Shown: positions 3,187 to 21,825, numbered from the stretch's first letter. The stretch is 64,000 bases of DNA from Candidatus Woesebacteria bacterium RIFCSPHIGHO2_01_FULL_44_10 (GCA_001792465.1 MGGO01000031.1:1172-65171), one strand, 5' to 3'. Numbers and translations are program-made. The notes: a model not told the origin generated them from the sequence alone.

Positions 3187-3262
3187 TGCGGGGTAGTCTA
3201 ATGGTAGTTGACGTCGCTCTCTGGAAGCGAAGATCCAGGTTCAAGTCCTGGCCCCGCAGCCA
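3187..3262 (+). tRNA. tRNA-Gln (anticodon CTG), with encoded CCA
   Basis: I folded the sequence by hand. The acceptor stem is TGCGGGG/CCCCGCA. The anticodon stem is TCGCT/AGCGA with loop CTCTGGA, giving anticodon CUG. The T-stem is CCAGG/CCTGG with loop TTCAAGT. The discriminator is G, followed by CCA. Confidence 0.8.
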
Positions 3263-3502
3263 AGACGGGCACCCCAGTGACCGTGATGCCTAGAATAGCT
3301 CGAAAACACCTTCAAAAACCCCAGTCTTTATTCAAGACATTCGTACCACACGCTTGTTGTTCGGACAAATGCCTTGAAAGGGGCCTTTTTGAGTCGTTAT
3401 GTTGATAGTTTAAAGTAGTGTATTACTCTGGAGTTTGAACCTAGTGTTCTGCGATAGCTTTGCCCGGTCAGTCGGGAATAGTACCGAATAATCCCATAAT
3501 AC

Positions 3503-4816
3503 TCAGTGTGCCCGTAGCGAGGTAACATTTCTATTTTGGATAAATAGTGGAAAGTCAAAGAGGTTAAATAATTCTCGTTTTTCTTCAGTGTTTTTGTTTG
3601 TGAGAACATATCTGGCATAATCTCTGATATCCCAAACCCTTGAATTTGGATTAATGTCCTGTTGGAGGAATATTGCTTCTCTCATGTTTTTAAATTCCTC
3701 TAAACCCTCTTGGATTTTGTCTGTGAGTATCAGTTCGTGCCGGTGGGCAATGTACATGAAGTTGATAAGTTTAAGTAAACTTTTCGCTAATTTTTCTTCT
3801 GACACATAAGGCTCTTTGCAATCGTGATCCACTTGGCGTGAGCAATGATAATAAATATGATATCTTGGTTCACCGACCAATCTTTGTCGGTATCTGTCTT
3901 CTCCAACAATACTTGCTTTGCAATTTGCACATTTTAAGAGCCCTTTATAGGTAAAGTTTTTAGATCCCCACTTGGACTTAGCAGGAACTGTTAGTTTTTC
4001 CTGAACTTCATCGTATAACTGCTTCGTAATTAGAGGAGGGTATGCCCCTTTGTACCAATTTCCACTTTTAATGGGGAATTCAAATTCTCCGTAGTAAAAT
4101 GGATTTTTAAGCATCAAATAAATTTGACTTAAGGTAACTTTCTTTCCTGATTTATTAGTGAAATTTATCTCATCTAGCCATTTTTTAATTTTTCTCCCAC
4201 TTGCTTTTTCATCAATAACTTTTGTGAACATTTGGGCAACAACTGCCCCTCTTTCTGGATCAATAATTACGTCTTTGATGCCATTAAAAGATCTATTCAT
4301 ATAACCAATTGGCGTTGGTCCTGGTCGAAATCCCATTTCGCATTTTGCTCTAATTCCGCGTTTAACATTTATTCCTTTTTGGTCATTTTCCAGTTTTGCC
4401 TGACTACAAAGGATCATGAGTAAAAACTTTTCATTGGGATTATTTGAAAAAGTTTGGGAAAAGGTTCTAATTTTTAATAGTTTTCCTTGATCCATCAGGT
4501 CGACTAACATACCAAGATCTCCAGCGTTTCTACTTAGCCTATCAGGAGCCCAAGTTAAAATCCCGTCAAATCTTTTCTCTCTGATGTCATTTAGCAACTT
4601 CATGAACATTGGCCTTTGCCCTGAGTCTTTTGCAGAATGGCTTTCTTGCAAAACCTCTGCAACTTTCAGATTTTCTTTAACTGCAAGTGCCTGCATTTCT
4701 TTTAATTGGCTGTCTATGCTCATTATTTGCCGCTCATCACTTTCCGAAGATTTTCGGGCATACAAGCAGTATTTTATTTCCGGGGTACTATCCATTCTAG
4801 GGAGGGAGAGTACCAC
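3503..4816 (-). CDS. Large serine recombinase (integrase)
   Basis: The N-terminal resolvase catalytic region is 'YCLYARKSS..SIDSQ'. A recombinase domain and a Cys-rich zinc-ribbon region ('CANCKAS','YYHCSRQ') follow, for a total of 437 aa. The gene lies about 240 bp from tRNA-Gln. Confidence 0.75.
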   Translation of the reverse strand: MVLSLPRMDSTPEIKYCLYARKSSESDERQIMSIDSQLKEMQALAVKENLKVAEVLQESHSAKDSGQRPMFMKLLNDIREKRFDGILTWAPDRLSRNAGDLGMLVDLMDQGKLLKIRTFSQTFSNNPNEKFLLMILCSQAKLENDQKGINVKRGIRAKCEMGFRPGPTPIGYMNRSFNGIKDVIIDPERGAVVAQMFTKVIDEKASGRKIKKWLDEINFTNKSGKKVTLSQIYLMLKNPFYYGEFEFPIKSGNWYKGAYPPLITKQLYDEVQEKLTVPAKSKWGSKNFTYKGLLKCANCKASIVGEDRYRQRLVGEPRYHIYYHCSRQVDHDCKEPYVSEEKLAKSLLKLINFMYIAHRHELILTDKIQEGLEEFKNMREAIFLQQDINPNSRVWDIRDYARYVLTNKNTEEKRELFNLFDFPLFIQNRNVTSLRAH

Positions 4817-4831
4817 AAAGGTGGGGGAAGT

Positions 4832-6319
4832 CTAGCCGAAGTATCCGCGGTTCATCATTTCTGTAATACTTAGGCCTCGGTTGGGTGGTGGTCCATAGTC
4901 GGCAATATATATCTGCGGATCTACATGCGTATCCGAAATCAGATGTAAAATTAGTATAGAGAAAGCATCTGCTAAATCATCATGCTTTTCAATTCCAAAC
5001 CCAACAAGTTGCTCAATCAGTCTTTCTGCCCCTTTTCTTGGAAATAAAATCTTGCCTGTTCTTATCATGTGTGTTGTTAAAGAAAGTCGCGCTCTTTTAT
5101 CGCTTCCTTTTAATTTAACTCCCTCAGCTGGTATCTCTTTTTGTTCCAGTTGCTGAGTGAAAGCTGACTGGTATGCAACCTCTTCAATAAGCAGCTTAGT
5201 TGGAGTTCCCTCTCCTAGTGCTTTTGATAAGTTTTTAGCCTCCTCAATCGCATCAGGGAAAGATAGACGTTTGTTTATAGGATTAGGAAGGATATAAATC
5301 TTTCTTTCTTCAGAATAGTCATAAACGCTGGCAGATACCATGGCTGTATAGTCGGCTGTATCTTTTTCAGATATTGCAAGGTCAACTCCGGTCAATGTGT
5401 ACATAAATTCGTTTCCCGTAGGTGGTCCATCGTAATATTGTATCCACTCAGGATGAACAATCCTGTCTTCGTCAGATATTATTGTCAGTAAGAACTCTCG
5501 CGACCATGAGGATTCACTTGCCACTTTTAACTTTTGTTCTTTTACTGTCTTTTCATCTGGAAATTTTCCCGGCCAAATAATTTTATCGTCTTTAATCAAA
5601 GGATATTCTTTATAAGTTCCACTTAGCTTGTTTTTAATAATTTGATTTTTAAGCCTCATCATCAACGAGTCTTCGTGCAACAAATTGCCAATAATTACAT
5701 ATTTAGAGTTGGGGTTCCCGGCTGGGATAACATCTCCAGTTAACCATTCATAAGATTTGTTTCGTCCCTCTCTGGTTTTTACTGAATTTAGATCTTCCAC
5801 ATCATCGCAAATTATCAAGTCCGGCCTGTTTTGTAAGTGCCGAAGCCCTCTGATGCTCTCACCGCTTGATATCGCCGTTATTCTGGTATTATATTTTGAA
5901 AGGACTAAAGAGTTTGCCCGCCATTCGTCATCATCTTGTCCAAATGGCCCAAAGTCAGACATGAGTGTCGTGTTTGTTTCAAACTCTTTCTTGATGTTAG
6001 ATAGTATCAACCGTGATTGTTGCTGGGTTTGACTGATGAGAATTATGAATTTTTTGTTTAAATTACCAACCATCGCCCAGATGGGGTATGAGAGTGTCAT
6101 TATTGTTGATTTTGCCGAGCCTCTAAATGCAACAATTACTACAAACTTCTCGCTCTCGTTTTGAGTTAAACCAAAAATCTCTTTTTGGAAATCTGCAGTC
6201 TTGAATTCCACATAATGAGGGAAGTAGGTATTGAAAAACCAGAAATGGCTACGTTTTGTAAGGTGTATGCGAAATGACCTGTCCTGGATAAGCTTTTCAT
6301 GAATTTTGTGATCTTCCAT
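4832..6319 (-). CDS. Phage terminase large subunit-like ATPase/nuclease
   Basis: Walker A-like 'AFRGSAKST' and Walker B 'LIICDDVED'. A C-terminal acidic nuclease-like region is present. The size is 495 aa. Confidence 0.55.
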   Translation of the reverse strand: MEDHKIHEKLIQDRSFRIHLTKRSHFWFFNTYFPHYVEFKTADFQKEIFGLTQNESEKFVVIVAFRGSAKSTIMTLSYPIWAMVGNLNKKFIILISQTQQQSRLILSNIKKEFETNTTLMSDFGPFGQDDDEWRANSLVLSKYNTRITAISSGESIRGLRHLQNRPDLIICDDVEDLNSVKTREGRNKSYEWLTGDVIPAGNPNSKYVIIGNLLHEDSLMMRLKNQIIKNKLSGTYKEYPLIKDDKIIWPGKFPDEKTVKEQKLKVASESSWSREFLLTIISDEDRIVHPEWIQYYDGPPTGNEFMYTLTGVDLAISEKDTADYTAMVSASVYDYSEERKIYILPNPINKRLSFPDAIEEAKNLSKALGEGTPTKLLIEEVAYQSAFTQQLEQKEIPAEGVKLKGSDKRARLSLTTHMIRTGKILFPRKGAERLIEQLVGFGIEKHDDLADAFSILILHLISDTHVDPQIYIADYGPPPNRGLSITEMMNRGYFG

Positions 6320-6773
6320 TTTCTTCCTCCTTTCCAGCGTCTGGAATAAGTGACGCCAGCTCCAGCGCTCTTCTCACCACCTCCTCCTGATCAGGTTCAA
6401 GTTTTTCAATTTGTTTATTGGGAGTTGTTATCTCAACTCTGGTTGCATATGTTTTGTGATGGTGTTTAAGCCAGAAAATAATTGCCGTCATGTTTTGCTC
6501 TTTTATTGCGGAAAGCAATTGCGATTCTGCAATGTCGTTAACAAACGAAGATCCTTCTTCCAAAGCCTCATCCGCAGCCTTTGAGAAAGCCTCATCTTCT
6601 TTTTTCCAGCGATAATATGTCGCTCTGCTCACCCCAGTTTTTTGGCAAGCAACCTGTACAACTGGCGTCTTTTTAAATTCCTCTATCAAAGCAACCCTTT
6701 TGTTGTGTTGTCTTTTTAGTATTGAGCTACTCATGATATTTTCTTTGTTTCCTTCCCTGCGAGCTTCTCCCAA
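6297..6773 (-). CDS. HTH protein, terminase small subunit-like
   Basis: HTH 'KTGVSRATYYRWKK'. It is co-oriented with and overlaps the TerL-like gene. Confidence 0.4.
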   Translation of the reverse strand: MGEARREGNKENIMSSSILKRQHNKRVALIEEFKKTPVVQVACQKTGVSRATYYRWKKEDEAFSKAADEALEEGSSFVNDIAESQLLSAIKEQNMTAIIFWLKHHHKTYATRVEITTPNKQIEKLEPDQEEVVRRALELASLIPDAGKEEENGRSQNS

Positions 6774-8080
6774 CGTTTCTTAATTACCTCTGCATATACA
6801 GGGGACTTTTCCATTAGGTAACATTTTCTTTTCATTTTCGTGGCTGCAATTAAAGTAGAACCACTTCCACCGAAGGGCTCGATTATAAGATCGCCACGCT
6901 TAGTTAAAACTTTTATATACGGAGTTAATATTTCAATAGGCTTTGTCCCAAAGATTATTCCCTGGCCGGAGGATTTTTCATCGGATGCTTTATATTCGAT
7001 AAAATCAGTTGGGCAATACTTTTTGCCTTTCTCGTAACTTTCCCAGTTTGGTTTTCCTGAAGTGGCAAAAATGGCAGTTTCATACTCCTCTTGAAGTAGA
7101 GGCTCCTCCTCTGGAGTCATATTTAAGGATACCTTTCCTGAGGTTCCAACCATTGCAAAGTCGTACTTGTTAAAAAACTTATACTTTGCAGCAAACCCCT
7201 GCATTCTATTGGGTAAATGCCAGATTATTGTATTTCTGTATTTCCAGTGTTTTTCTAGTTCATTCCAAATAGTTCTTAAATTTTTCGGGTTTTCATAGAT
7301 GATAATTGAGAAATCAGCTTTCTGAATCTTAGCAATGTTATTCATCCACAACTGCGTAAAGTCCGGAGGTAATACATCTGTTTCCAAATATCTCCTGTCT
7401 CTTTTGGCTCCGAAGCCAGTAATTGCTCCTTTATATTTTTTCTTTCCCCGCAGATAGTCCAGGATATATGGAGGGTCAGTAAAGCACATATCAGCCTTCT
7501 CACCATCCATTAACTTGAGCACATCTGCTTCAACAGTTGAATCACCACACATAAGCCTCGAGTCTCCTAATGCATAAACATTCCCCTTTTGGATTTTTAT
7601 TTCCTTGATGTCCAGTTTTTGAAGCTCTTTTTCCAAATCAAATTGCTCAGGCGTAATATCAATTTCAAAAATATCGTCCAGCTCTTCAGAGGTAAAGCCA
7701 ATTTCCGATAAAATGTTCTCATCGAAATCGGCCAGTAATTTCCAATCCCAATCTCCAAGATTTTTATTTAGCCTGAGGTTTAGCTCTTTTTCTTTACTCT
7801 CATCTGGAATATTTAGATAGACTACGGGGATCTTTTTAAAGCCTAAGTCCCTTGCAACTTTAAGTCTAAAGTGCCCGCCAATTACAATGTTCTTTCTTTT
7901 CTCTGCTCCATTTACAATTATCGGGTCAACCAGGCCAAATTCTCCAATGCTTTCTTTTAAGCCATGAATTGCCTCCTCAGACCATTTTCTGGGGTTGTAA
8001 GTTGCAGGTTTTAATTCGTTTATATCAACCTGAACGATGTTGAGCTGGTTGGATACAGTTTCCATAAGTATCTGAAGCAT
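6731..8080 (-). CDS. ParB-like nuclease domain fused to beta-class DNA N6-adenine/N4-cytosine methyltransferase
   Basis: N-terminal ParB/Srx-like motif. The MTase motifs are 'FTDPPY' (motif IV) upstream of 'EPFGGSGST' (motif I), which is the beta-class order. Confidence 0.7.
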   Translation of the reverse strand: MLQILMETVSNQLNIVQVDINELKPATYNPRKWSEEAIHGLKESIGEFGLVDPIIVNGAEKRKNIVIGGHFRLKVARDLGFKKIPVVYLNIPDESKEKELNLRLNKNLGDWDWKLLADFDENILSEIGFTSEELDDIFEIDITPEQFDLEKELQKLDIKEIKIQKGNVYALGDSRLMCGDSTVEADVLKLMDGEKADMCFTDPPYILDYLRGKKKYKGAITGFGAKRDRRYLETDVLPPDFTQLWMNNIAKIQKADFSIIIYENPKNLRTIWNELEKHWKYRNTIIWHLPNRMQGFAAKYKFFNKYDFAMVGTSGKVSLNMTPEEEPLLQEEYETAIFATSGKPNWESYEKGKKYCPTDFIEYKASDEKSSGQGIIFGTKPIEILTPYIKVLTKRGDLIIEPFGGSGSTLIAATKMKRKCYLMEKSPVYAEVIKKRWEKLAGKETKKIS

Positions 8081-8137
8081 AAAACACTATAAAATCAGAA
8101 GAAACGATAAAATTGGAGGAAAAAAGGAGGAAATTTG

Positions 8138-8761
8138 TTAATTCATAAGTTTCCGAGCATACAGCAATCTATGACCATGCTTTCGTACTCTGCGTATCCC
8201 AACTTCAATACCTGCACGCCGCAAATATTTTTTTAAATCCCTTCTTATGTATCCAATCCCCTTTGATTCATCGGTAACATCTATCTTGTCCAGGAATTCT
8301 TTATCACTCACATAGTTATTTTTATAAGTTAATAACATCCTCAAGAATCTGCCGTGCTTAGACCCTGTGGTAATAATGCTAATTGGTTGATTGTTAAAAA
8401 GAAAAATACCCTCAAATGTAATAATCATATTGAATACTCCTTCATTTTCTTTAACTATCTCAACTTCCTGAATATTGGCAACAGGTTCAAACTGTAGGGC
8501 AAATGGATTCAACGCATATTGGAAACGTCGTGCCATGTGTGCCTGTGTTTCTTGAATGCTTCTTAATAACTCTGCAAAAGGAAAATTTAAAGCCGCTGAA
8601 ACAACCTCGTTATAGTGTTTAACCATATTTATATGCGCCAACCTGATTTCTTCTACTTGTTTTGCCAAGGCCATAGTGAGAGTCAATGCCTGATTTGGGT
8701 AAAAACTTAAGATGTCCGTTCTTTCTTCCATATCTAATTTTATCAGGCTATGCAAGTACAA
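8138..8761 (-). CDS. Hypothetical protein
   Basis: ORF of 207 aa with no recognisable motif. Confidence 0.3.
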   Translation of the reverse strand: MYLHSLIKLDMEERTDILSFYPNQALTLTMALAKQVEEIRLAHINMVKHYNEVVSAALNFPFAELLRSIQETQAHMARRFQYALNPFALQFEPVANIQEVEIVKENEGVFNMIITFEGIFLFNNQPISIITTGSKHGRFLRMLLTYKNNYVSDKEFLDKIDVTDESKGIGYIRRDLKKYLRRAGIEVGIRRVRKHGHRLLYARKLMN

Positions 8762-8830: not shown

Positions 8831-11800
8831 ATGTCGAGATATTATAGAAAATTTGACGCCAAAAAATATTGGGCTAGTAAGCCTTACTGCGAAGTATGCA
8901 AGACCAAAAAAGTTAAATATGGGAGAATATGTAGTGAGTGTGAAAAGAAAGCGGGTTTTAAAGAAGTTGAGATGAAAATAAATAATGACAAAATTAACAA
9001 TGATGATCTGGTTGCAAAATTCGCCTCGGCAGATCTTGAGCATACAGAAGCTGATCAAAGGTTAATATCGCTTGTTGGATATTTAAAAGATTGTGCCCAG
9101 GCTCTGCTGCGCTCAGTTGCTTTGAATGATTTGGGCACAAAAGATGTTTCTTTTCTTCCGATGTCCCCCGATTCTTTAGAGAAGTTAGCAGCTGATGATC
9201 TGGTTCTCAAAGGGCAGGAAGTGCTTGACCTGCTTTATAAACTAAAGGCAAGACCAACAGAATTCGAATTAATACTTGGAACACTTTTTGTAAAAGGGTT
9301 CAAAGGAAAAGGGGACAAAGTAACTCGTATTAACGCTCCCCTTATTTTTATAAAGCTTGAAGCCGAGAAAACGGAAGATGACTCAGTAGTTTTTAGTGTT
9401 AAAGAAGACATGATACATCTCAACCAATCCTTAGTGGCTAGTTTGGTTAGTGTAATCAATGAAGAGGAATTGGAAATACGTTTTCAAGATTTATGGAGCG
9501 CAACGCCAGAATGGCCATTGTCTTTTGAATCAATCCAACAATTTTATGAAAGTTTCAATAATTATTTTCCTGAAATTTTTTCTACAGATGAAAAAATTAG
9601 TAATTTTGTTGAACTGGATTCTATAGAAGCTAAAAAAGAAAAATATCAGATTTGTCCAGCTCACTGTCTGATAGTAGCACCAAAATTGGCAGCCGAGGGG
9701 ACTGTTGTCGAAGAAATAAACCAAATCCTGCAGGATATGAAAAACAACACGTCTGCAGATTTTCTGTTTCTGGAGAATAAAGCTGGCGGGGACCCCGTGT
9801 CTGAGGTAATAGATCAAACAACTGATGGATATTCAGAAGGAGGAAGTGAGGAGAATGAAAAATGGCACAACCTTTTTCCGTTTGACCTTAGTGATACACA
9901 GAAGGGTATTGTGCGCGCAGCTAGAGAAAACAATCTGACCGTTGTTTCTGGGCCACCTGGCACAGGGAAATCGTATACCATTGCTGCTATTATTTTAGAT
10001 CATTTGTTGGGTGGAAAACGCGTATTATTTGTTTCCCGAATGGACAAAGCGGTCGAGGTGGTAAGCGAGTGGCTTGAAGAATCTGTTGGTACTTTTTCTA
10101 TTGCTAGATCTGGAGGAAGAAAAGCACAACGTGCTTTAGCTGATAAGCTCGATTCCATTACTGGTGCAAAGACTCCAGTGAAGCACTATACAAAGGAAGA
10201 AATCGAAAGTGTGCTCAATGGATATTCCGACGCGCAAGAAAAACTAACAACTCTTGAAGAGCAGTTTTTGAATACGCTGTCTCAAGAAAGAACGTGGTCT
10301 AAGGTAAAGGAAGAAATTAATAACCTTGATGACAAAATAAAAACTGATCCAGATCTTTTATCTTTACCCATAGACAAGAAAAAAGCTGAGAAATTAAAGG
10401 AGAAAATCCGTGGAGCAGATTTTCTCATCAAGAATAAGAAGTTTTTCGTTCAGACATGGTGGGGAAACCACGTTCTCTCAAATGTCAAAAAACAGTTAGG
10501 TGCTAGAGATAATGCTACCCCGGATGAGTTAATTTATAAGGCAGAGCGCATAGAGAATGAAAGGAAGCTGGAAGAAGTTGAAAATGAAATCTCCAAATTT
10601 GACGAAATAAACCAATTGTGGACACAAATTTCTAGTCGAAAAGAAGAATTAAAGGATCTTGCTTTAAATAACCTAAAGGCTATGTTGTTGGGCAACTTAT
10701 ACACCATTGTACATAATTATGATAAACGTGTTGAGCTAAGAAACTTTATAAAATCGCTACGAACAGCAAATATGCGAGAAAAGTTGGCGCTCTTAGAGAA
10801 AGTCGAAACTGAAACTCTACTAAGCGCATTCCCTTGTTGGGCAAGTACAACTTATCACCTTTCCCAGATATTGCCCATAGAGCCTGGAATGTTTGATCTA
10901 GTCATTTTCGATGAATCTAGTCAGTGCGATTTAGCCTCTACGTTACCCGCTCTTTATAGAGCAAATAGAGCATTAATAGTTGGTGATCCGAAACAACTAA
11001 CTCATGTCGTATTTTTGGGGCGCCAGGCAGAATACTCTGCGTTTGCAAAGAATAACGTACCACCTGAAATGCAGGCCAACTATCGATTTTCGACACAAAG
11101 CCTGTTTAATGTGGCCGAAAATGCAGTTCCTCAAGCAAACTATTTTATGCTCGACGAACATTTTCGTTCTGATCCACATATCATAGGTTTTTCTAATAAG
11201 ATGTTTTATGAAGACAACATTAGAATTATGACCAATAGACCGAAACTCGGCTCAAATAAGGAAGATGCAGCAATTCAAATAGAATATATAAACGGCAAAC
11301 GTACCAATGGAGCAGCTAATCCGAAAGAGATAGAACATATTTTTTCACACGTAAGGCAGCTAATTGCGCAATCTCCGTTGGATAAACCAACTTCAATTGG
11401 AATACTTTCCCCTTTTAGGGACCAAGTAAATGCAATTACTAAAGAACTTCCGAATTGTGTAAATCTAAACGAAGTTGAGCGACATAATATTGTCGTGGGT
11501 ACTGCTCATAGTTTACAAGGTAACGAAAAGGATGTGGTAATTTTATCTTTGTCTCTTGACCCTAAGTTTCACCATGGGACATTGAGATTTCTAGAAACCC
11601 CTAATGTCTTTAATGTATCTATCACGCGCGCCAGAAAGAAATTAATTGTCATATCCTCCGTCGCTCTAGGCGACTTACCAAACGGGTTACTTAAGGAATT
11701 TTTATTATATGCAGGTGACTCTGCGACGAATATATTGCCTCGTGATGTGTTTGAATCCAGATTTGAGGAACAAGTTGCTCAAGCACTGGAACGAGAAGGT

Positions 11801-12064
11801 TTAAAGGTCTGGCCTCAATATGAGGCTGCCGGATTCTCAATCGACTTAGTAGTTAGAGATGGTAAGAATTGGATTGCAGTTGAGTGTGATGGGCCAACTC
11901 ATTTTGATATGAAACAAGGGCAGAGTTTTAACGATGCGTGGAGGCAAGGAATATTGGAAAGAGCTGGCTGGAAATTTGTAAGAATTCCTCATAGGGATTG
12001 GGAAAGAAATTCAGAAGAGCAAATTGAAAAGGTAAAGAAAAAATTGGATCAACTGCAGTATTAA
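8831..12064 (+). CDS. Zn-ribbon + Upf1-like SF1 helicase (AAA_11/AAA_12) + C-terminal DUF559 (Vsr-like PD-(D/E)xK) endonuclease
   Basis: N-terminal CxxC..CxxC. Walker A 'VVSGPPGTGKSYTIAAI' and Walker B 'VIFDESSQCD'. 'GDPKQL' and 'VGTAHSLQGNEKDVVILS' are helicase motifs. The C-terminal 'IAVECDGPTHF...AGWKFVRIP' is a DUF559 signature. Confidence 0.75.
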   Translation: MSRYYRKFDAKKYWASKPYCEVCKTKKVKYGRICSECEKKAGFKEVEMKINNDKINNDDLVAKFASADLEHTEADQRLISLVGYLKDCAQALLRSVALNDLGTKDVSFLPMSPDSLEKLAADDLVLKGQEVLDLLYKLKARPTEFELILGTLFVKGFKGKGDKVTRINAPLIFIKLEAEKTEDDSVVFSVKEDMIHLNQSLVASLVSVINEEELEIRFQDLWSATPEWPLSFESIQQFYESFNNYFPEIFSTDEKISNFVELDSIEAKKEKYQICPAHCLIVAPKLAAEGTVVEEINQILQDMKNNTSADFLFLENKAGGDPVSEVIDQTTDGYSEGGSEENEKWHNLFPFDLSDTQKGIVRAARENNLTVVSGPPGTGKSYTIAAIILDHLLGGKRVLFVSRMDKAVEVVSEWLEESVGTFSIARSGGRKAQRALADKLDSITGAKTPVKHYTKEEIESVLNGYSDAQEKLTTLEEQFLNTLSQERTWSKVKEEINNLDDKIKTDPDLLSLPIDKKKAEKLKEKIRGADFLIKNKKFFVQTWWGNHVLSNVKKQLGARDNATPDELIYKAERIENERKLEEVENEISKFDEINQLWTQISSRKEELKDLALNNLKAMLLGNLYTIVHNYDKRVELRNFIKSLRTANMREKLALLEKVETETLLSAFPCWASTTYHLSQILPIEPGMFDLVIFDESSQCDLASTLPALYRANRALIVGDPKQLTHVVFLGRQAEYSAFAKNNVPPEMQANYRFSTQSLFNVAENAVPQANYFMLDEHFRSDPHIIGFSNKMFYEDNIRIMTNRPKLGSNKEDAAIQIEYINGKRTNGAANPKEIEHIFSHVRQLIAQSPLDKPTSIGILSPFRDQVNAITKELPNCVNLNEVERHNIVVGTAHSLQGNEKDVVILSLSLDPKFHHGTLRFLETPNVFNVSITRARKKLIVISSVALGDLPNGLLKEFLLYAGDSATNILPRDVFESRFEEQVAQALEREGLKVWPQYEAAGFSIDLVVRDGKNWIAVECDGPTHFDMKQGQSFNDAWRQGILERAGWKFVRIPHRDWERNSEEQIEKVKKKLDQLQY

Positions 12065-12094
12065 AATCTGATATACTTTGACCTAGTCTCGAAG

Positions 12095-13510
12095 GTGAGA
12101 TATACTTCAACTATGAGTGATTCAAACAAAATTAAATGTCCAAAATGTGGAGAAAGTTTTGAACCTTCTGAGGCATACAAACATGAGTTAGAAGAATCTT
12201 TACTCAAAGAGACTCAGGCAAAGCATCAGGAAGATATTAAACGGCTTGAAAAGGAGAAGCTAGATCTTGCCGAATCAACGCGTCTCGAAACAGAAAAGAA
12301 AGCTAAAAAAGAGTTAGAAACTGCGGTAGAAGCAGCTAAAGAGGAAGCTGAGGCAAAAAATAAGCAAAATTCGAAACTTAAAGAAGAACTGGAAGAACAA
12401 AGTCAACTTTTAGCAGACCTAAAAGAAGAAAAAAGTAAGCTTCGTCGTGATCATGAACAAGAGCTTGAGGATGTCAGAAGGCAAACCGCCGAGATATCTC
12501 GTAAAGAAGCCGAAGAAAAAATTCGCAAAGAGCTTAAGAGTCAAATAACAGCCTCAAATGAGGAATCTAAAGCTCGTGAAGATCAAAACAAAGAACTCCA
12601 AGATCAGGTAAAAGAGTTACTTAAACAGATGCGCGAACTTAAAGATGATAGGGATAAATTAGGAATTGAATATGAAAAGAAGTTGCTTGAAGGTCAAGAC
12701 AAGATAAAACAAGATGCAAAAAAAGAAGCCCAGGACGAACTTAACCTCAGAATAGCTGAAAAAGATAAAAAACTTCAAGATGCAGAGAAACAAATACTTG
12801 AGTTGCAAAGGAAAATCCAACAAGGCCCCCAGAACCTACAAGGCGAGGTTCAGGAATTAGAACTACAAGAAATTCTATCAGTAGAATTTCCTTTTGATGA
12901 AATAAAAGAAGTGCCTAAAGGTGTCAGCGGAGCTGATGTACTTCAGACAGTTAAATCTCAGACTGGAGAAGTTTGTGGAACTATTATCTGGGAATCCAAG
13001 CGTACGAAGACTTGGGGTTCGGATTGGATTCAAAAATTAAAAGATGACCAAAGAATGATTAAAGCTGATCTCGCTATTTTGGTGTCTACAGTTCTGCCAC
13101 AAAATGTTTCTTCAATTGGCATTATTGATGGAGTTACGATCTGTGAATTGAGAATGGCTGTGAGCATTGCCCAACTTCTTAGACAGCAACTTATGAAGGT
13201 GCATTCGGCACAGGTTGCCAACGATGGCAAAGCTACAAAAGCTGAAATTGTTTACAATTATCTGATTAGTAATGAGTTTAGGCAGAGGATAGAGGTTTGG
13301 GTTGAATATTTTAAGGATAGACAGGAAAAAATCAATAGAGAAAGAATCTACTTTAACAAGAAGTGGCAAGAAGAAGAGAAAAGTATACAAAAAGTTATTA
13401 CAAACACAGCAGGTATTTATGGTGACTTGCAAGGCTTAATAGGAAATGCTTTACCAAAAGTGAGCTATCTTGAGCTTCCTGATTCTACAGAAGAGACAGA
13501 AAATAATTGA
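12095..13510 (+). CDS. Zn-ribbon / coiled-coil / C-terminal PD-(D/E)xK nuclease-like protein (DUF2130/RmuC-like)
   Basis: 'CPKCGESF' sits at the N-terminus. A coiled coil of about 250 aa rich in E/K/Q follows. The C-terminal 'GADVLQ...GTIIWESKRTK' gives a D...ExK nuclease core. Confidence 0.55.
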   Translation: MRYTSTMSDSNKIKCPKCGESFEPSEAYKHELEESLLKETQAKHQEDIKRLEKEKLDLAESTRLETEKKAKKELETAVEAAKEEAEAKNKQNSKLKEELEEQSQLLADLKEEKSKLRRDHEQELEDVRRQTAEISRKEAEEKIRKELKSQITASNEESKAREDQNKELQDQVKELLKQMRELKDDRDKLGIEYEKKLLEGQDKIKQDAKKEAQDELNLRIAEKDKKLQDAEKQILELQRKIQQGPQNLQGEVQELELQEILSVEFPFDEIKEVPKGVSGADVLQTVKSQTGEVCGTIIWESKRTKTWGSDWIQKLKDDQRMIKADLAILVSTVLPQNVSSIGIIDGVTICELRMAVSIAQLLRQQLMKVHSAQVANDGKATKAEIVYNYLISNEFRQRIEVWVEYFKDRQEKINRERIYFNKKWQEEEKSIQKVITNTAGIYGDLQGLIGNALPKVSYLELPDSTEETENN

Positions 13511-13606: not shown

Positions 13607-14590
13607 ATGTCCGATAAAAATATGCATGAAAGGATTAATCAAATTTCAAAAGAAACAGGAGTACCGACAAAAAAGGTTCTCGATTTGTTATTTGCACTGC
13701 GAGATGGCGAAGTTGTTGAAAATAATGAATTGGTCCGAAAGGTAGGTGTTTCTAAAAATGCCCTAAATAAGGTAAAAGAGAGGCTGGCCTCGGTATTAGA
13801 ACCTGTGTCAAAAGACACACAACTTGATGGCGACCATGTTCAAGAAATACGAGCAATCTTTGATGAAGGCTATAAATTTGAAGATGCTATGTGGACTATC
13901 CTAGAAGATGATAAATACAAAAAGGCATCTGAATTGTTAGAAACTATTTCCGATAAGAGACCTTCACCTGAAAGAAGGTTTGATCAATTTACTGCAACTA
14001 TAGAAACAACGGCTCGTCGTGCTTCTCTCCTTCAATTCTTTGGAGACATTAAAGGTAAAAGAATTTTGTTTCTAGGTGATGACGATTTTACCTCGATAGG
14101 AGTGGCTTCTTTGGGATTGGCTGCTCATATAGAAGTACTAGATGTAGATAAACGCATTCTTGAGAGCATCAAAGGTGTCGCTGAGACAGAAGGTTTTACT
14201 ATTTCAACCACAAGAAGTGATTTAACACAGAGGCTGCCGAATCAGCTTATGAGAAATTTCGACATTGTATTTACAGATCCTCCGTACACGGAAAATGGCA
14301 TGAATCTATTTCTCTCAAGAGCTATTCAGGCATTGGATCCGGATAATCACGCAGCAAGGATATATACGTGCTATGGGAATAGTGACAGGGCTAGGGAGAG
14401 ATACCTGCCTGTACAAAGGTTATTTACAGAATCCGGATTAATGATGAGGTGGGTTTTTGACGGATTTAATCGCTACAGAGGGGCAGAATCGATTGGCAGC
14501 TCAAGTGCATTGTTAATAGCTGATGTAACACCAAAGACAAAACCTTTAGTTAAAGGAGGCTATGATAAACCCATCTATACCAACAATTGA
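13607..14590 (+). CDS. DUF43/BpsA-family aminopropyltransferase-like protein (class I SAM-fold; predicted dcSAM-dependent)
   Basis: Motif I is 'ILFLGDDDFTSIG' and the motif 'FTDPPY' is present. The N-terminus is winged-helix-like. The gene directly precedes and overlaps an AdoMetDC gene. Confidence 0.5.
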   Translation: MSDKNMHERINQISKETGVPTKKVLDLLFALRDGEVVENNELVRKVGVSKNALNKVKERLASVLEPVSKDTQLDGDHVQEIRAIFDEGYKFEDAMWTILEDDKYKKASELLETISDKRPSPERRFDQFTATIETTARRASLLQFFGDIKGKRILFLGDDDFTSIGVASLGLAAHIEVLDVDKRILESIKGVAETEGFTISTTRSDLTQRLPNQLMRNFDIVFTDPPYTENGMNLFLSRAIQALDPDNHAARIYTCYGNSDRARERYLPVQRLFTESGLMMRWVFDGFNRYRGAESIGSSSALLIADVTPKTKPLVKGGYDKPIYTNN

Positions 14591-14909
14591 ACACCATACG
14601 GCTCTTATTAAACTTGAAAAATTTCCCAACAATCAAAACAGCCTAGAACAGTTTGCTGATAAGCTAATAGAAAGTCTTAATTTGACTGTGGTTAAAAGCG
14701 TTTTTCATTCTTTCAAACCTCAAGGGAAAACTCTTGTATATATTCTTTCAGAGTCACACCTTGCAATTCACACATGGCCAGAATACAAGCTTCTTCATAT
14801 TGATTTGGTAAGTTGTGTTAAGGTCTTAAATTTTGAAAATTCATTGAAACTAATATTAAATAATTATGGGATTAGTAGTTTAAAGGTAAATCCGGCACTA
14901 GAAAGTTGA
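14562..14909 (+). CDS. speH: S-adenosylmethionine decarboxylase proenzyme (pyruvoyl-dependent, SpeH-type)
   Basis: 'VYILSESHLAIHTWPE' contains the ES self-cleavage site and the class 1 AdoMetDC signature. The size is about 115 aa. Confidence 0.75.
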   Translation: MINPSIPTIEHHTALIKLEKFPNNQNSLEQFADKLIESLNLTVVKSVFHSFKPQGKTLVYILSESHLAIHTWPEYKLLHIDLVSCVKVLNFENSLKLILNNYGISSLKVNPALES

Positions 14910-14997
14910 TGCCAGACAGTTTTGTGATACAATTATCATTAACAAAACTTAAATAAGAAAGTTTTGATGGTTAAACAAGCCATTTTAAATACGAGCT

Positions 14998-15567
14998 ATG
15001 GCAACTCGAAACCACACTAAACTAATAGTGGATCTTCTGGAGCTATATGGAGAGGATCCAAACAGAGAGGGACTCAAAGAAACTCCCGAAAGAGTTCTTC
15101 GAATGTACAAGGAGCTTCTGGGTGGTTATCAACAAGACCCATCTTCGGTAATTAAGACTTTCGAAGGAAATGGACATAATGACTTGGTGACTGTTAGCGA
15201 CATCGATTTTTATAGTCTTTGCGAACATCACATGATACCCTTTTTTGGAAAAGTTCATATAGGTTATATTCCAAACGGCCGAATACTTGGACTTTCGAAA
15301 TTCGTTCGATTGACAGAAATTTACGCCAGGAGACTTCAGGTACAGGAGCGGCTAACCAGACAAATAATGGATGCAATCGAAACAAATTTGCACCCACAAG
15401 GAGCAATCGTTCATGTTGAGGCGGAGCATCTTTGTATGGTAATGCGTGGTGTCAAGAAGAAAGGGGCAATCACCAAAACTACAGCTCTTTGTGGAGATTT
15501 TGAAAAAGACCCTTTACTTGTGGATAGATTTTTTAGACATATAAATCGTAGTGATAATTCAAAATGA
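14998..15567 (+). CDS. folE: GTP cyclohydrolase I
   Basis: 189 aa. 'FYSLCEHHMIPFFGKVHIGYIP' and 'VEAEHLCMVMRGV' are FolE signatures. Confidence 0.85.
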   Translation: MATRNHTKLIVDLLELYGEDPNREGLKETPERVLRMYKELLGGYQQDPSSVIKTFEGNGHNDLVTVSDIDFYSLCEHHMIPFFGKVHIGYIPNGRILGLSKFVRLTEIYARRLQVQERLTRQIMDAIETNLHPQGAIVHVEAEHLCMVMRGVKKKGAITKTTALCGDFEKDPLLVDRFFRHINRSDNSK

Positions 15568-16019
15568 AGGTAACAAAACAAATTGAGTGGGATATGGGGC
15601 ACAGAGTAACTAACCATCACTCTAAATGTCAAAACATACATGGCCACCGCTATCGGGCCGAAATATGCATGGAGGGGAAATTAGTAGACATAGAAGGCAT
15701 ATCAGAAGAAGGGATGGTTATTGATTTTGGAGATATTAAAAAGATTGCCATGGAACATGTCCACGATGTTTTAGATCATGGATTTATGGTCTGGAGGAAA
15801 GATAAGGAGGTTATGAAATTTTTTGAGGATAACCCAAAGCAAAAGCACATAATTGTTGATTTTGTGCCAACTTCCGAAAACATTGCAGCCTGGATTTTTA
15901 AAGAGTTAGATGGACGATTTATCGATAAATTTAAAACAGATTTGAGGCTTTGCTGGGTCAAACTTTGGGAAACACCAACGAGTGTTGCGATCTGCACCAG
16001 AGAGGATTTAGAAAAATAA
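15564..16019 (+). CDS. queD: 6-carboxy-5,6,7,8-tetrahydropterin synthase (PTPS family)
   Basis: 151 aa with a 'CQNIHGHRY' Zn-binding motif. It has a 4-nt overlap with folE. Confidence 0.8.
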   Translation: MKVTKQIEWDMGHRVTNHHSKCQNIHGHRYRAEICMEGKLVDIEGISEEGMVIDFGDIKKIAMEHVHDVLDHGFMVWRKDKEVMKFFEDNPKQKHIIVDFVPTSENIAAWIFKELDGRFIDKFKTDLRLCWVKLWETPTSVAICTREDLEK

Positions 16020-16020
16020 A

Positions 16021-16809
16021 ATGAGTGGCGAGAGACAGATTTACCAACCCACACCGGAGGATCGGGAAAGAATCAGGCCAAAACCTGACCTTCTTAAAGT
16101 AAGCGGAGATGGAGTTTTTGCTACTTTGCAAGGTGAGGGAGTTACAGCAGGAGAGCCTTCAGTATTTTTGCGGTTGCACTATTGCAACTTGACTTGTGGT
16201 AAACCTGAAGGGTGGAAGTGCGACACTTGGTATACATGGGATAAGGAAAGGGAGGAGTATTGGACGGAGTCATCTGATGTGAGTTTTAGAGAAATAGCAG
16301 CGACTATGGAAGCTGCTTGGGAAAGCGCTTTTGATGCTAATGGGACAAAAAGGGCGGTTATTACCGGAGGTGAGCCTCTTCTGCAACAAAGTAAAATTAT
16401 TAAGCTAATAGAAGAATTACCAGATTGGGACATAGAAATTGAGACTAATGGCACGATCGTTCCCGCCCCTGAGCTCGGTGATTGTCAATTTAATTGCTCG
16501 CCAAAACTGGAGAACAGCGGAAACAGTAAAGCGCGTAGATATAACCCATCGGCGCTAAAAGCAATAAATGCACTACCCAACTCATGGTTTAAATTCGTAG
16601 TTTCAGACACAAGCGATCTTGATGAAATAGATGAACTCGTGCGAGATTGCGAGCTCAATGAAGATAAATTACTTATAATGCCGGAGGGTCAAACAGCAGA
16701 TGTTGTCGAAGGACATGCACAACTTGTGAGAGATGCTGTTAATGAACGAGGGTGGAAAATTACTATGAGAAATCAACTAATTTGGTATGGTGACAAAAGA
16801 AGAACTTAA
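16021..16809 (+). CDS. queE: 7-carboxy-7-deazaguanine synthase (radical SAM)
   Basis: Cys cluster 'CNLTCGKPEGWKC' and 'ITGGEPLL'. It sits in que gene context. Confidence 0.7.
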   Translation: MSGERQIYQPTPEDRERIRPKPDLLKVSGDGVFATLQGEGVTAGEPSVFLRLHYCNLTCGKPEGWKCDTWYTWDKEREEYWTESSDVSFREIAATMEAAWESAFDANGTKRAVITGGEPLLQQSKIIKLIEELPDWDIEIETNGTIVPAPELGDCQFNCSPKLENSGNSKARRYNPSALKAINALPNSWFKFVVSDTSDLDEIDELVRDCELNEDKLLIMPEGQTADVVEGHAQLVRDAVNERGWKITMRNQLIWYGDKRRT

Positions 16810-17949
16810 ATGATAATTGGATCAATAGACAATAAAGAAGTAGATAGTTCAAATTTAATACTTGATACAGTTGATAATTTTCAGCTTGATGAAGTTGTTA
16901 GCAATGCATTGTTGCTTACACTGGCCGGATACTTAGAAAAAGATGACATCACAGTAAACGGTAAACAATACTTTGATAAAAAGAGACTTGAACAATTCTT
17001 TAGTTACGTTCTTAACGATAAAAGGGCAGCGCCACGAAAGTATAACCTTCAATTAAGTTTTTCGAACAAAAACCACGAAGTAAATTCTGCAAAGAAAAAC
17101 AATTACAAATACATTATTTCATATAGTGGTGGTATAGACAGCACTGCAGGGCTTTTGTACGCACTAGACAAGGGATACCCCATACAACCAGTTTGGGTTG
17201 GTTTTGGGCAAAAAAATGAAAAAGATGAGTTAGAGGTAATAAATAAAATCTGCAAGAAACTTAAAACCAGACCTATTGTTATCAATATTAATCTAAAGAG
17301 ATATGTTGATGAAGGTTGGAACAGGTGGAAAATGGGGATTATTCCTGGAAGAAACTATATTTTTGCGTCTATTGCTGCTTCTATGGTAAACCTATCAAGT
17401 AGCGATAAAAACACAATATATATTTGCGCGCATAAAGAAGAAATCAATCCTGTTAATACGGATAAAAGTGAAAGGTTTTACAACACATGTACTAAGATCT
17501 TTACAAAAAGCTACAACAAAGATATCGAGCTTACTACTCCATTTTTTAATGCCACTAAACCGGAAATTATCTATTACTGGATCAAGCACTGGAAACAGAA
17601 ATATAACATTTCACCACAAGAAACTGTTAGTTGCTATCACGGTACCAACTGTGGAATTTGTAAAGCTTGTATAAATCGTGCAGTTGCTTTTGCGTGTTGT
17701 GGGCTACAAACAGAAAGTTATAAAAATGATCCCTTTAAGGATACCGAGCATGTGATTCAAGAAGGATATATTGATCGATTTAATATATTAAAATTAGAAC
17801 GAAAACTTGATTTTCTTTTTGCCCTTAACTTTAACAAAAATTCCCTGCCAACAAACTTGAGAAACTTCGTAGATACAAACTATAAAAGATACAGCAACAA
17901 AATAATCGACAGACAAAAAATGATTAGAGAGGGTTTAAACATAAAATGA
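16810..17949 (+). CDS. queC: 7-cyano-7-deazaguanine synthase-like PP-loop ATPase (QueC) with an N-terminal extension of about 100 aa
   Basis: PP-loop 'ISYSGGIDST'. The C-terminal Zn site is 'CYHGTNCGICKAC'. The N-terminal extension was not recognised. Confidence 0.7.
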   Translation: MIIGSIDNKEVDSSNLILDTVDNFQLDEVVSNALLLTLAGYLEKDDITVNGKQYFDKKRLEQFFSYVLNDKRAAPRKYNLQLSFSNKNHEVNSAKKNNYKYIISYSGGIDSTAGLLYALDKGYPIQPVWVGFGQKNEKDELEVINKICKKLKTRPIVININLKRYVDEGWNRWKMGIIPGRNYIFASIAASMVNLSSSDKNTIYICAHKEEINPVNTDKSERFYNTCTKIFTKSYNKDIELTTPFFNATKPEIIYYWIKHWKQKYNISPQETVSCYHGTNCGICKACINRAVAFACCGLQTESYKNDPFKDTEHVIQEGYIDRFNILKLERKLDFLFALNFNKNSLPTNLRNFVDTNYKRYSNKIIDRQKMIREGLNIK

Positions 17950-18617
17950 AGCTATCAGTTGAATTACATAGCCTAGAGAGTAAGGATTCATTAACCTTAC
18001 TAAAAGCAATATATAAATCACTAGATGATTTCAAATCAGTGACCAAAGTTGATTTAGATAATATCCAAATTACGTGTACTAATAGCCATCGGCAGATGGA
18101 GCAAATACTTGGTTACAAGCGCCCAATGTGGGGAGTAAGCACTATCAAGAAAGGAAAGATATTTTTATATAATCCTAGGCTGTGGAACAAAAAACAAACA
18201 GGACACACTCCGGGCGATGTGGTAGCCAGCATTACTCATCAACTAGTACATCTTTACTTTGAGCAGGAAAAAATTAAATCACCTGTCTGGTTTGAGGAAG
18301 GGTATGCAACATATGTTAGCGATAGACAAAATGAAAAATTTAGGAAAAATGAGCTGAAAAAACTAGTTAAAAAGTATGGCGTATGTGACTATAACAGTCT
18401 AAAGGTCAGCTTTGCTAAACTTTCTGTTCCTGCGTTGTATTATCAAAGTTCATACGGCTTCATGTTTTATCTAGTTAAGCTACAAAAAGAAAATTCGCTT
18501 AACAAGTTAACTGATAAGTTAAAAAATGGAGAAAATTTCGAAAATAGTTTCATAAACATTTATGGCAGAAGTGCAAAAGATATATGGGAAGAGTTTAACA
18601 ATAAATTAATCAAATAA
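17946..18617 (+). CDS. Hypothetical protein with an HQxxH motif (possibly a metallopeptidase-like fold)
   Basis: 'ITHQLVHLYFEQE...EEGYATYV'. It is translationally coupled within the operon. Confidence 0.3.
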   Translation: MKLSVELHSLESKDSLTLLKAIYKSLDDFKSVTKVDLDNIQITCTNSHRQMEQILGYKRPMWGVSTIKKGKIFLYNPRLWNKKQTGHTPGDVVASITHQLVHLYFEQEKIKSPVWFEEGYATYVSDRQNEKFRKNELKKLVKKYGVCDYNSLKVSFAKLSVPALYYQSSYGFMFYLVKLQKENSLNKLTDKLKNGENFENSFINIYGRSAKDIWEEFNNKLIK

Positions 18618-18618
18618 T

Positions 18619-20298
18619 ATGAGCGGATATATTTTAGGAATCACCGGATGGTTTGAAAGAAGTCACGACGCATCTGCGTGTATTGTTAAAGACGGCAAGG
18701 TTTTGGTTATGGTTGAAGAGGAGAGATTTATCCGTAAGAAACATGCATACGACAAGACACCGGTTCGTTCGATTTCTTGGTGTTTAAATAAGTTGAGCCT
18801 AACTTTGGATGACATTGAGACTGTTGCGGTAGGTTGGGACTATAAGTATCTTTACCGTCTTGCTGGATTAAATGAGCCCAGATTGAATAATCTCGCAGAT
18901 GTGTTCTTTCCCAAAAAATATTTTTCGTATTCAAGGAAGCTAAAAATCGAAATTGTTCCCCATCATTTGGCACATGCGGCTTCATCGTATTTTCTCTCCG
19001 GATTAGACGAAGCAGCAATTTTAGTAGTAGATGGCCAAGGCGAAAACGAATCAACTACCATAGCTCGAGGTAGATCTGGAAAGATAGATATACTGCGAAC
19101 TTTTAGTATTGAGAATTCTTTAGGATATTTCTATGAAGCAGTGAGTGACTACATAGGACTAGGTCTTGACTCAGCTGGTAAGACCATGGGGCTTGCTTCA
19201 TATGGAGATATTATTTATGAATTTGACGAAATAAAGCTCTCTCCAAATGGGTATAAAGTTAATCTTAAGTTTGATAAAAAAGACAACTCACTTGATCAAC
19301 AGCAGCGTGTTCTTAGTGCATGGAAAAGAGTATTAATAGACACATTTGGTAAGCAAAACCAGGTGGACACAAAGTTTAATCCACTATATGGAGACTTCAC
19401 TAAAAGCGTGAAGATATCTAAGTTGCAAAAAGACACCGCCGCCTCAGCACAGGATGTTTTAGAAAGAACTTTGATGCATCTTTCTGAAATTGCTGTCAAC
19501 GAAACTGGCATAAAAGACTTATGTATGGCGGGTGGTGTGGCGTTAAACTGTTCGTCAAATACCAAAGTCGCCAGATCCGAGCACATAAACAGTCTATTTA
19601 TTCCACCCAACACTTCTGATGCCGGTGTTTCTCTTGGAGCTGCCCTGCTTATATCTGGAAAGGATAATTCGGGTGGGTCTCTGGAGTCTGCATATTTTGG
19701 ACCTTTATACACAAACTCTGAAATTAAATCTGTACTTGATAAAAACAATATCGCATATGAATACCATGAGGATATTGAAGATGTAGTTGCTAAACTACTA
19801 GCAAATGGAAAGATTGTTTCTTGGTTTCAGGACTCATTAGAGATTGGACCAAGGGCGCTTGGCAATCGAAGCATTGTAGCAAATCCAACGCTTGCGACAA
19901 TACACAAAAAGGTTAATGAGGCAAAAAACAGAGAGCAATGGAGGCCTCTAGCCCCCAGTATTCTAGAGGAGTCGATTGGTAAATATTTGGTAAATCCGAT
20001 GAAATCTCCTTTCATGCTTCATACATTTGATGTAAAAAAAGAAGTAAGAAGTAAAATTTCCGCGATTGTGCACGTTGATGGATCAACTAGACCTCAAACA
20101 GTGAGTAAAAAGGCAAACCCCCGATACCATAAAATGATCAGTAAATTTGGTAAATTAACAGGTTATGATCTTGTGCTTAATACATCTTTTAATGGTAGTC
20201 GTGAGCCAATAGTTTGCTCTCCATATGATGCATTAACCTCATTTATTAGTAATTCTACCGATTGCCTTGCTATTGGAAACTTTCTTGTAAGCAAATGA
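18619..20298 (+). CDS. NodU/CmcH-family carbamoyltransferase
   Basis: 559 aa. The N-terminal 'ILGITGWFERSHDASACIV' is a Kae1/YgjD-like carbamoyltransferase N-domain. A C-terminal YrdC-less CmcH-like domain is present. Confidence 0.7.
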   Translation: MSGYILGITGWFERSHDASACIVKDGKVLVMVEEERFIRKKHAYDKTPVRSISWCLNKLSLTLDDIETVAVGWDYKYLYRLAGLNEPRLNNLADVFFPKKYFSYSRKLKIEIVPHHLAHAASSYFLSGLDEAAILVVDGQGENESTTIARGRSGKIDILRTFSIENSLGYFYEAVSDYIGLGLDSAGKTMGLASYGDIIYEFDEIKLSPNGYKVNLKFDKKDNSLDQQQRVLSAWKRVLIDTFGKQNQVDTKFNPLYGDFTKSVKISKLQKDTAASAQDVLERTLMHLSEIAVNETGIKDLCMAGGVALNCSSNTKVARSEHINSLFIPPNTSDAGVSLGAALLISGKDNSGGSLESAYFGPLYTNSEIKSVLDKNNIAYEYHEDIEDVVAKLLANGKIVSWFQDSLEIGPRALGNRSIVANPTLATIHKKVNEAKNREQWRPLAPSILEESIGKYLVNPMKSPFMLHTFDVKKEVRSKISAIVHVDGSTRPQTVSKKANPRYHKMISKFGKLTGYDLVLNTSFNGSREPIVCSPYDALTSFISNSTDCLAIGNFLVSK

Positions 20299-21780: not shown

Positions 21781-21825
21781 GAGCCTGTAGTATTATATCA
21801 AAGCTAATCGTAAATAACATTATAT

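Follow-up and report, generated by a model that had tools for sequence, protein, structure and literature searches.

Within a 64,000-nucleotide stretch of DNA (the window) from Candidatus Woesebacteria bacterium RIFCSPHIGHO2_01_FULL_44_10, a member of the candidate phyla radiation (Patescibacteria), two adjacent genes on the plus strand, termed here A (8831..12064) and B (12113..13510), encode a predicted helicase-nuclease and a predicted coiled-coil nuclease of the DUF2130 family. The two genes probably form, with a likelihood that we put at roughly 0.55, a facultative two-gene cassette, which integrative mobile elements of Patescibacteria carry as cargo and whose most likely role is to restrict phages or other DNA that enters the cell. 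This reading is favored because of the domains of both proteins, their intact catalytic motifs, the recurrent adjacency of the genes, the replacement of the partner and the location on mobile elements and near defense genes; for the defense function of the cassette, its substrate and a physical coupling of A and B, we infer rather than observe. The cassette is of a known general kind, a helicase-nuclease with an accessory nuclease, and its partner family is undescribed. An earlier note, made from the sequence of the window, had proposed a defense module. The recurrence of the pairing and its mobile, defense-rich context agree with that proposal, which is tempered by the facultative nature of the pair and by the promiscuity of B, whose relatives occur with Type I restriction-modification (RM) plus OLD genes, with Type ISP plus PDC-S06 genes, with a Gabija-type pair or alone. 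Related loci that were compared are given L-numbers.

Domains of the proteins encoded by A and B

Gene A (OGM29466.1, A2630_00525) starts with ATG and encodes 1077 residues; it was characterized from its open reading frame (ORF), by Pfam and Protein Data Bank (PDB) searches, by a family alignment with 18 homologues (46-79% identity) and by an exact database match, and in databases it is annotated as hypothetical or as 'RAP domain-containing'. At the N-terminus, residues 20-37 (8888..8941) form a CxxC...CxxC zinc ribbon with a weak match to DZR_2, and its cysteines C20, C23, C34 and C37 are invariant in the 18 homologues. The helicase core begins with RecA1 (AAA_11, residues 353-727, 9887..11011), which contains Walker A (residues 374-381, GPPGTGKS) and motif II (residues 694-698, DExSQ), both invariant in the same alignment, and it continues with RecA2 (AAA_12, residues 756-943, 11096..11659; E 3.1e-28), for which the PDB matches include Sen1, Upf1, IGHMBP2 and DNA2. 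Sequence and fold searches of the PDB with the A protein retrieved Sen1/SETX, Upf1, IGHMBP2, Aquarius, ZNFX1 and DNA2, that is, Upf1-like helicases of superfamily 1B (SF1B). The AAA_11 match extends over 375 residues as compared to the 257 positions of the profile, and the Pfam span and the AlphaFold model (overall predicted local distance difference test score, pLDDT, 68.8) place an all-helical insertion of about 230 residues inside RecA1 (residues ~430-660, 10118-10810), with long helices at 455-484, 564-627 and elsewhere. Residues 978-1072 (11762..12046) match REase_MTES_1575, a PD-(D/E)xK nuclease family of the Vsr/DUF559 type, with an E-value of 1.8e-24, and the nuclease residues E979, D1005, E1018, D1020 and H1024 are invariant in the 18 homologues. 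Pfam, alignment and PDB matches therefore uphold what had been claimed for the 1077-residue protein, namely a zinc ribbon, an SF1B Upf1-like helicase and a C-terminal Vsr-like nuclease; its more specific label DUF559 applies only by type, as the DUF559 model itself stays below threshold (18.6 bits versus a cut-off of 20.6).

Between zinc ribbon and helicase, residues ~70-310 (9038..9760) are modeled as a beta-rich N-domain (pLDDT ~75-88), which appears to be a divergent DUF4011 domain. In A itself the match to PF13195 (DUF4011) reaches only E 0.04 (residues 157-205), and of 25 scanned proteins with an A-type N-domain 5 match DUF4011, the best with E 1.2e-6. A single-sequence search with the N-domain found only 50 representative clusters among 1.84 billion proteins and no protein longer than 1385 residues, hence none of the length of Hhe. 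The domain is usually N-terminal in proteins of about 1000-1100 residues, and 13 of the 25 scanned proteins also carry MTES_1575 and 14-17 helicase domains. The zinc-ribbon module (residues 1-58, 8831-9004) is found in addition in many small stand-alone proteins of 60-200 residues and at the N-terminus of an unrelated protein of 1385 residues (45-63% identity over ~45 residues), which suggests that it may be a mobile adaptor module.

Gene B (OGM29467.1, A2630_00530) was defined by its ORF, Pfam, alignment, an AlphaFold model and a database match. The ORF can be read from a GTG at 12095, which yields the 471 residues and the distance of 30 bp to A reported in the earlier note; OGM29467.1 and the N-termini of homologues favor the ATG at 12113, which is most probably the start. 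With this start the protein has 465 residues and the spacer between A and B (12065..12112) is therefore 48 bp long, not 30. Pfam DUF2130 (PF09903) matches residues 211-456 with E 5.9e-62 and 209.7 bits (gathering score 26.7). In the AlphaFold model (pLDDT 78.5) the protein consists of a knuckle, one helix of about 220 residues (residues 18-236, 12164..12820), presumed to form a coiled coil, and an alpha/beta domain, and residues 240-446 (12830..13450, plus strand) comprise a PD-(D/E)xK core (240-345; D275, E294, K296) and C-terminal helices. D275, E294 and K296 are invariant in the family alignment and C9 and C12 nearly so. The zinc ribbon that had been assigned to B is reduced to a knuckle made of a CxxC at residues 9-12 plus a His, with a weak zf-C2HC_2 match (E 0.005). 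The N-terminus (MSDSNKIKCPKCGESFEPSEAYKHELEE...) is charged. A PDB sequence search with B gave no match, and its matches to LmuB and JetC are noise of the coiled-coil type.

Recurrence and replacement of the downstream partner

Homologues of the A clade are rare, with about 48 full-length clusters at 45-79% identity, one of them named Candidatus Buchananbacteria (Patescibacteria), and their neighborhoods could be compared in 12 distinct contexts (53-86% identity). In 5 of the 12, a full DUF2130 gene lies directly downstream of A and in the same orientation; the gaps measure 48 bp (window), 5 bp (L010/L011), 24 bp (L012), 3 bp (L117) and 8 bp (L122, where A is only 54% identical). An RmuC-domain gene takes this place in 1 of 12 contexts (L115/L116, gap 10 bp), and in 2 of 12 A is followed by ORFs of 223 residues (L003/L004) and 80 residues (L006-L008) which match the N-terminus of DUF2130 proteins, comprising zinc knuckle and coiled coil, and which are decayed DUF2130 partners. 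A stands without partner in the 4 contexts L001, L005, L009 and L093. The order, A and then the partner on the same strand, is always kept, and the gaps measure 3-24 bp in the 7 paired contexts besides the window. Co-occurrence across genomes had been named as a test of the proposed pairing, and the pairing does recur. No conserved upstream neighbor of A was found among the related loci and no neighbor other than the downstream partner recurs. A genome scan yielded two close relatives, and the other 78 loci encode proteins of 26-37% identity and have neither DUF2130 nor RmuC genes.

The A proteins share 53-86% pairwise identity, whereas their DUF2130 partners share only 31-42%. The A proteins of L012 and L115 are 82% identical, yet a DUF2130 gene follows in the first locus and an RmuC gene in the second. 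In a rough and crude neighbor-joining tree of DUF2130 proteins, which included RM-linked, Gabija-linked, viral and plasmid copies, the A-linked partners occupy at least 3 separate places: B of the window groups with RM-linked copies, the copies of L010 and L117 group with a viral copy, and that of L012 groups with copies from Campylobacterota plasmids. The closest relatives of B are the DUF2130 proteins of L094 (69%) and L095 (65%), neither of which is A-linked. For a small sample and a crude tree, this indicates that the slot after A has probably been refilled repeatedly, by swapping rather than by simple co-inheritance, and repeated refilling is a stronger argument for a functional linkage than simple co-inheritance would be.

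The surroundings of A are mobile. Homologues are carried on serine-recombinase elements with differing backbones, either terminase-like or of the PrimPol/NrS1 type, and defense-type genes lie beside A in L005 (Gabija and PycTM) and L117 (AbiEii); genes of a diversity-generating retroelement (DGR) and a Fic gene accompany A in L010. The homologues of the large protein are thus not core housekeeping genes: they are rare, sit on mobile elements and adjoin known defense genes. DUF2130 genes have similar associations without A. In L094, which has the backbone of the window, a Type I HsdR gene, an OLD-family ATPase gene and an HsdM/S fusion gene replace A, the DUF2130 gene is kept (18 bp after the preceding gene) and a Shedu gene follows. 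The DUF2130 gene of L095 overlaps the end of a Type ISP plus PDC-S06 operon and that of L104 comes after an operon of HsdS and OLD ATPase genes. On plasmids, DUF2130 genes precede genes annotated as ATP-dependent endonuclease and UvrD helicase (Aliarcobacter; the gene-pair pattern of Gabija), lie inside a Type I RM locus (Chryseobacterium) or near SIR2 and PIN genes (Bradyrhizobium), or adjoin an NB-ARC gene (Granulicella). A DUF2779 gene adjoins or lies near DUF2130 in two unrelated loci (L010, 8502-10557, Patescibacteria; L119, 421-2986, an Aliarcobacter plasmid), and in L010 a DUF2726/MTES_1575-like gene comes after the DUF2779 gene.

Relation to known systems and competing explanations

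A search with PADLOC, as the earlier note had proposed, gave matches of A to PDC-S37, MkoC, Hhe and MkoA that cover the helicase-nuclease half only, and none for B. By these profile comparisons the nearest relatives of A appear to be Hhe, PDC-S37, ProA and the Mokosh helicases. PADLOC 2.0 has no model for DUF2130, which the literature describes as a PD-(D/E)XK family of unknown function, in line with the earlier statement that the pairing is not an established named system. A likeness to Nhi, also proposed earlier, is not supported; no Nhi model was among the PADLOC matches at E <= 0.01, and the domain order of Nhi (an N-terminal nuclease plus helicase) is different.

Hhe (PADLOC PDLC02194, NCBIfam NF042953) shares with A the order of an N-terminal domain, which is DUF4011 in Hhe and appears to be a divergent DUF4011 in A, an AAA_11/AAA_12 helicase and a C-terminal MTES_1575/Vsr-like nuclease. 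This single-gene DUF4011-helicase-Vsr endonuclease is reportedly an anti-phage protein. Residues ~660-1076 of A align with the models of Hhe and of two similarly large proteins, the PADLOC candidate PDC-S37 and ProA (E 7e-68 to 3e-44), but only this C-terminal 40% of A does so, and the 1077 residues of A compare with profile lengths of 1550-1911. Against NF042953, A scores 192.4 bits and does not reach the cut-off of 2000 (residues 660-1076 versus profile positions 1254-1684 of 1797), and against ProA (NF058533) it scores 215.3 bits and does not reach 1500 (residues 678-1075 only). Unlike Hhe, A possesses an additional zinc ribbon and is recurrently followed by the gene of a partner nuclease, and its N-domain is only marginally DUF4011. 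By these scores and alignments, A is best described as having a compact Hhe architecture without being a member of the Hhe family.

Mokosh (MkoA helicase and MkoB phospholipase D (PLD) nuclease; MkoC fusion in type II) likewise combines an Upf1-like helicase of the COG1112 type with a nuclease, which may be a separate gene, and over its helicase A matches MkoC (E 4e-53) and MkoA (E 2e-42). Mokosh loses its defense activity when either the ATP site of the helicase or the PLD site is mutated. However, a PLD nuclease is absent from A, B and the flanking genes and a Ser/Thr kinase domain is absent from the window; here the nucleases are instead a Vsr-like domain fused to the helicase and a DUF2130 protein encoded by a gene of its own. 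Among the more distant relatives of A (26-37% identity; L014-L091, Planctomycetota and Pseudomonadota), a PLDc_2 gene of about 230 residues is conserved upstream in 11 loci (for example L018, 9058-9789), which gives a Mokosh type I-like pair in which the helicase ends additionally in an MTES_1575 nuclease. The helicase CnuH of CoCoNuT type III-B resembles A: in both, an Upf1-like helicase contains a helical or coiled-coil insertion and is joined to a Vsr-like nuclease. The authors of the CoCoNuT paper suggest that helicase and effector are coupled by coiled coils; McrB/McrC (CnuB/CnuC) genes, in contrast, are absent near A in the window and in all homologue loci examined.

For B, the closest published analogue is ShdA of Shield, a resemblance of architecture. 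ShdA combines a transmembrane helix with a coiled coil and an RmuC domain, degrades DNA and is sufficient alone for defense; homologues of it lie within DISARM and Type I RM loci, and Shield has been reported in Pseudomonas only. Like ShdA, B has a long coiled coil followed by a nuclease of the PD-(D/E)xK superfamily and is encoded by a gene added next to helicase or restriction modules, and an RmuC-domain protein occupies the slot of B after A in L115/L116. The domain of ShdA is RmuC (PF02646), whereas B contains DUF2130 and gives no RmuC match, and in place of the N-terminal transmembrane helix of ShdA, B carries its charged CxxC knuckle and a charged helix. An hhalign comparison of the DUF2130 profile with an RmuC protein detected no similarity (probability 0.06), and so the description of B as RmuC-like holds for its architecture and not at the level of profiles.

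If the cassette acts in defense, its conserved part would be A, a motor-nuclease that is related to Hhe and the Mokosh helicases and compact in size. Its zinc ribbon and DUF4011-like N-domain would engage foreign nucleic acid or a replication intermediate, the Upf1-like SF1B core would translocate with ATP and the Vsr-like MTES_1575 domain would cut. B would be a coiled-coil PD-(D/E)xK DNase, presumably a dimer, providing a second, exchangeable nuclease activity; it might be recruited to A, possibly through contact of its coiled coil with the helical insertion of A, or act in parallel on the same target, a role that would resemble that of ShdA inside DISARM and Type I RM loci.

Several observations weigh against the reading of A and B as a defense cassette. 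Four of the 12 contexts lack a partner and two more have a truncated one beside a full-length A; because A stays intact where the partner is absent or truncated, B is not required by A, which can evidently persist alone, and the module of A and B is facultative. The 12 contexts are few, were selected by the length of stretch available and do not represent independent events. A lies far below the curated cut-offs of Hhe and ProA. DUF2130 genes occur also alone in a housekeeping-like context (L096), among small phage genes and on phage contigs, and beside ArdC, WGR and DUF736 genes on conjugative plasmids, in a setting that resembles a leading region; DUF2130 is tied to mobile elements and often to defense and is not a defense-only family. 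Finally, the spacer contains a promoter-like match, so that B may be transcribed alone here: of the sigma-70-like matches between 8 and 14 kb, the best (10/12) is at positions 12078-12106, a lead only, as the total of promoter-like matches does not exceed the shuffled expectation. No terminator-like site was found on the plus strand of the spacer.

Some of these points would also fit an alternative that we regard as unlikely, in which A and B are independent single-gene systems that cluster in a defense hotspot of mobile elements, A as a stand-alone Hhe-like system and B as a stand-alone ShdA-like system with its own promoter. That A stands without B in 4 of the 12 contexts and persists beside decayed copies of B, that relatives of B have many unrelated neighbors or none, that the spacer holds a promoter-like site and that ShdA alone suffices for defense are all compatible with independence. 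Yet order, strand and gaps of 3-24 bp are constant in 7 further contexts, A has no other recurring neighbor, and in the rough tree scattered DUF2130 lineages, and once RmuC, fill exactly one slot after A; moreover, the overlap of DUF2130 with the preceding gene in L095 and the gap of 18 bp in L094 argue for co-transcription with the upstream partner.

Somewhat more doubtful still is a role of the pair in the DNA metabolism of the element or host, such as recombination, repair or end processing in the manner of DNA2 or RmuC, or else replication or packaging of the element. The helicase core of A resembles DNA2, Sen1 and Upf1, RmuC was first described in the literature as a recombination-limiting protein, recombinase, terminase-like or PrimPol genes are close to A in most loci, and DUF2130 occurs in phages and plasmid leading regions. 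Such a role is harder to reconcile with the occurrence of A on at least 3 different element backbones and also in non-element contexts (L122, L117), with the RM plus OLD module that stands in place of A on the same backbone in L094, and with the rarity of A (about 48 full-length clusters) and its defense-gene neighbors. As a special case of defense, one serving the element and not the cell, the cassette could be a weapon of a phage-satellite-like element that cuts the DNA of helper or competing phages and favors its own packaging. We consider this improbable: the backbone composition (recombinase, terminase-like gene, small helix-turn-helix (HTH) gene and ParB-methyltransferase) is conserved in the window, L094 and L115, but capsid, replication and helper-interaction genes were not identified and A with B is found outside this backbone as well, and the present data do not separate a satellite weapon from generic defense.

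Returning to the reading of A and B as a facultative defense cassette, a broader proposal is possible and is offered tentatively. DUF2130 proteins might constitute a widespread, unnamed class of plug-in coiled-coil nuclease effectors that are recruited repeatedly by defense motors unrelated to each other, namely Hhe-like helicase-nucleases, Type I RM plus OLD, Type ISP plus PDC-S06 and Gabija; the slot of the A clade would have been refilled by several DUF2130 lineages and once by RmuC, and A with DUF2130 would be a new two-component system in which coiled coils couple a translocase to an exchangeable DNase. Little has been charted so far of the defense systems in bacteria of the candidate phyla radiation. 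Should the pairing prove functional, a compact system of the Hhe/Mokosh type would be added, the widespread DUF2130 domain, whose function is unknown, would gain a role as modular second nuclease for many restriction-type machines, and knowledge of the RmuC nuclease ShdA would be extended beyond Pseudomonas. The replacement of partners beside a conserved helicase offers a natural experiment on effector swapping in immune operons.

Element backbone and further genes of the window

Upstream of A, a mobile-element backbone on the minus strand (3187..8761, defined from the annotated neighbors of A) adjoins a tRNA-Gln gene (3187-3262, plus strand), the sole match of the Rfam scan. It comprises genes, all on the minus strand, for a large serine recombinase (3503-4816), a terminase-like protein (4832-6319), a small HTH protein (6297-6773) and a fusion of ParB with an N6/N4 methyltransferase (6731-8080), followed directly upstream of A by a 207-residue gene of unknown function (8138-8761), of which a homologue was found in none of the related loci. 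The backbone recurs in L094 with 56% identity for the terminase, 51% for the small gene and 69% for the ParB-methyltransferase, and terminase-like, HTH and ParB-methyltransferase genes are also carried by L115/L116. No direct repeat of at least 13 nucleotides that would link the tRNA-Gln region to downstream sequence in the manner of an attachment site was found, and megablast matched the region to no phage genome. A prophage spanning the whole low-GC region was considered and rejected, the genes from 32 to 45 kb being metabolic.

Downstream of B follow a BpsA-like gene and an S-adenosylmethionine (AdoMet) decarboxylase gene and then FolE, QueD, QueE and QueC-like genes with a string of tailoring-type enzymes, so that the annotated genes agree with the earlier placement of the pair between a phage-like integrase/terminase/ParB-methyltransferase block and a que operon. 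Besides FolE, QueD, QueE-like and QueC-like (379 residues) genes, the cluster at 13607-25728 contains genes for the BpsA-like aminopropyltransferase, AdoMet decarboxylase, a peptidase MA, a carbamoyltransferase, GT2, a PIG-L deacetylase, two APH-type kinases, an RrnaAD/Erm-like methyltransferase, NUDIX and GrpB, and a TGT/DpdA gene is absent. From its gene content the cluster looks more like 7-deazapurine nucleoside biosynthesis with resistance-type genes than like a tRNA-queuosine operon, which, if so, would be unusual in a genome of Patescibacteria. A 7-deazaguanine DNA modification of the Dpd type, which would have tied A to the que genes, was dropped because the match to DpdJ is confined to 90 helicase residues and a TGT/DpdA gene is missing.

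Further downstream, an insertion sequence with an rve integrase (26577-27449) immediately precedes, 14 kb from B, a fragment of 146 residues (27474-27914) that shares 71% identity with the C-terminal specificity domain of the 1024-residue Type ISP enzyme heading the Type ISP, PDC-S06 and DUF2130 operon of L095, and that represents a truncated restriction gene. A reverse transcriptase gene on the minus strand (27963-28970) matches the PADLOC model for retron reverse transcriptases of type VI over its full length (E 6e-72), and a Cas4-like PD-(D/E)xK gene (29922-30716) and an HD-domain gene come after it. The S-adenosylmethionine synthetase encoded at 31298-32521 is of the archaeal type (PF01941), and the related Woesebacteria locus L096 has the bacterial type. 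Near the end of the window, a bAvd-like gene (61092-61484, minus strand) and a reverse transcriptase gene (61399-62583, plus strand) form a DGR pair, and this reverse transcriptase is 60% identical to that of the DGR located just upstream of the pair of A and B in L010.

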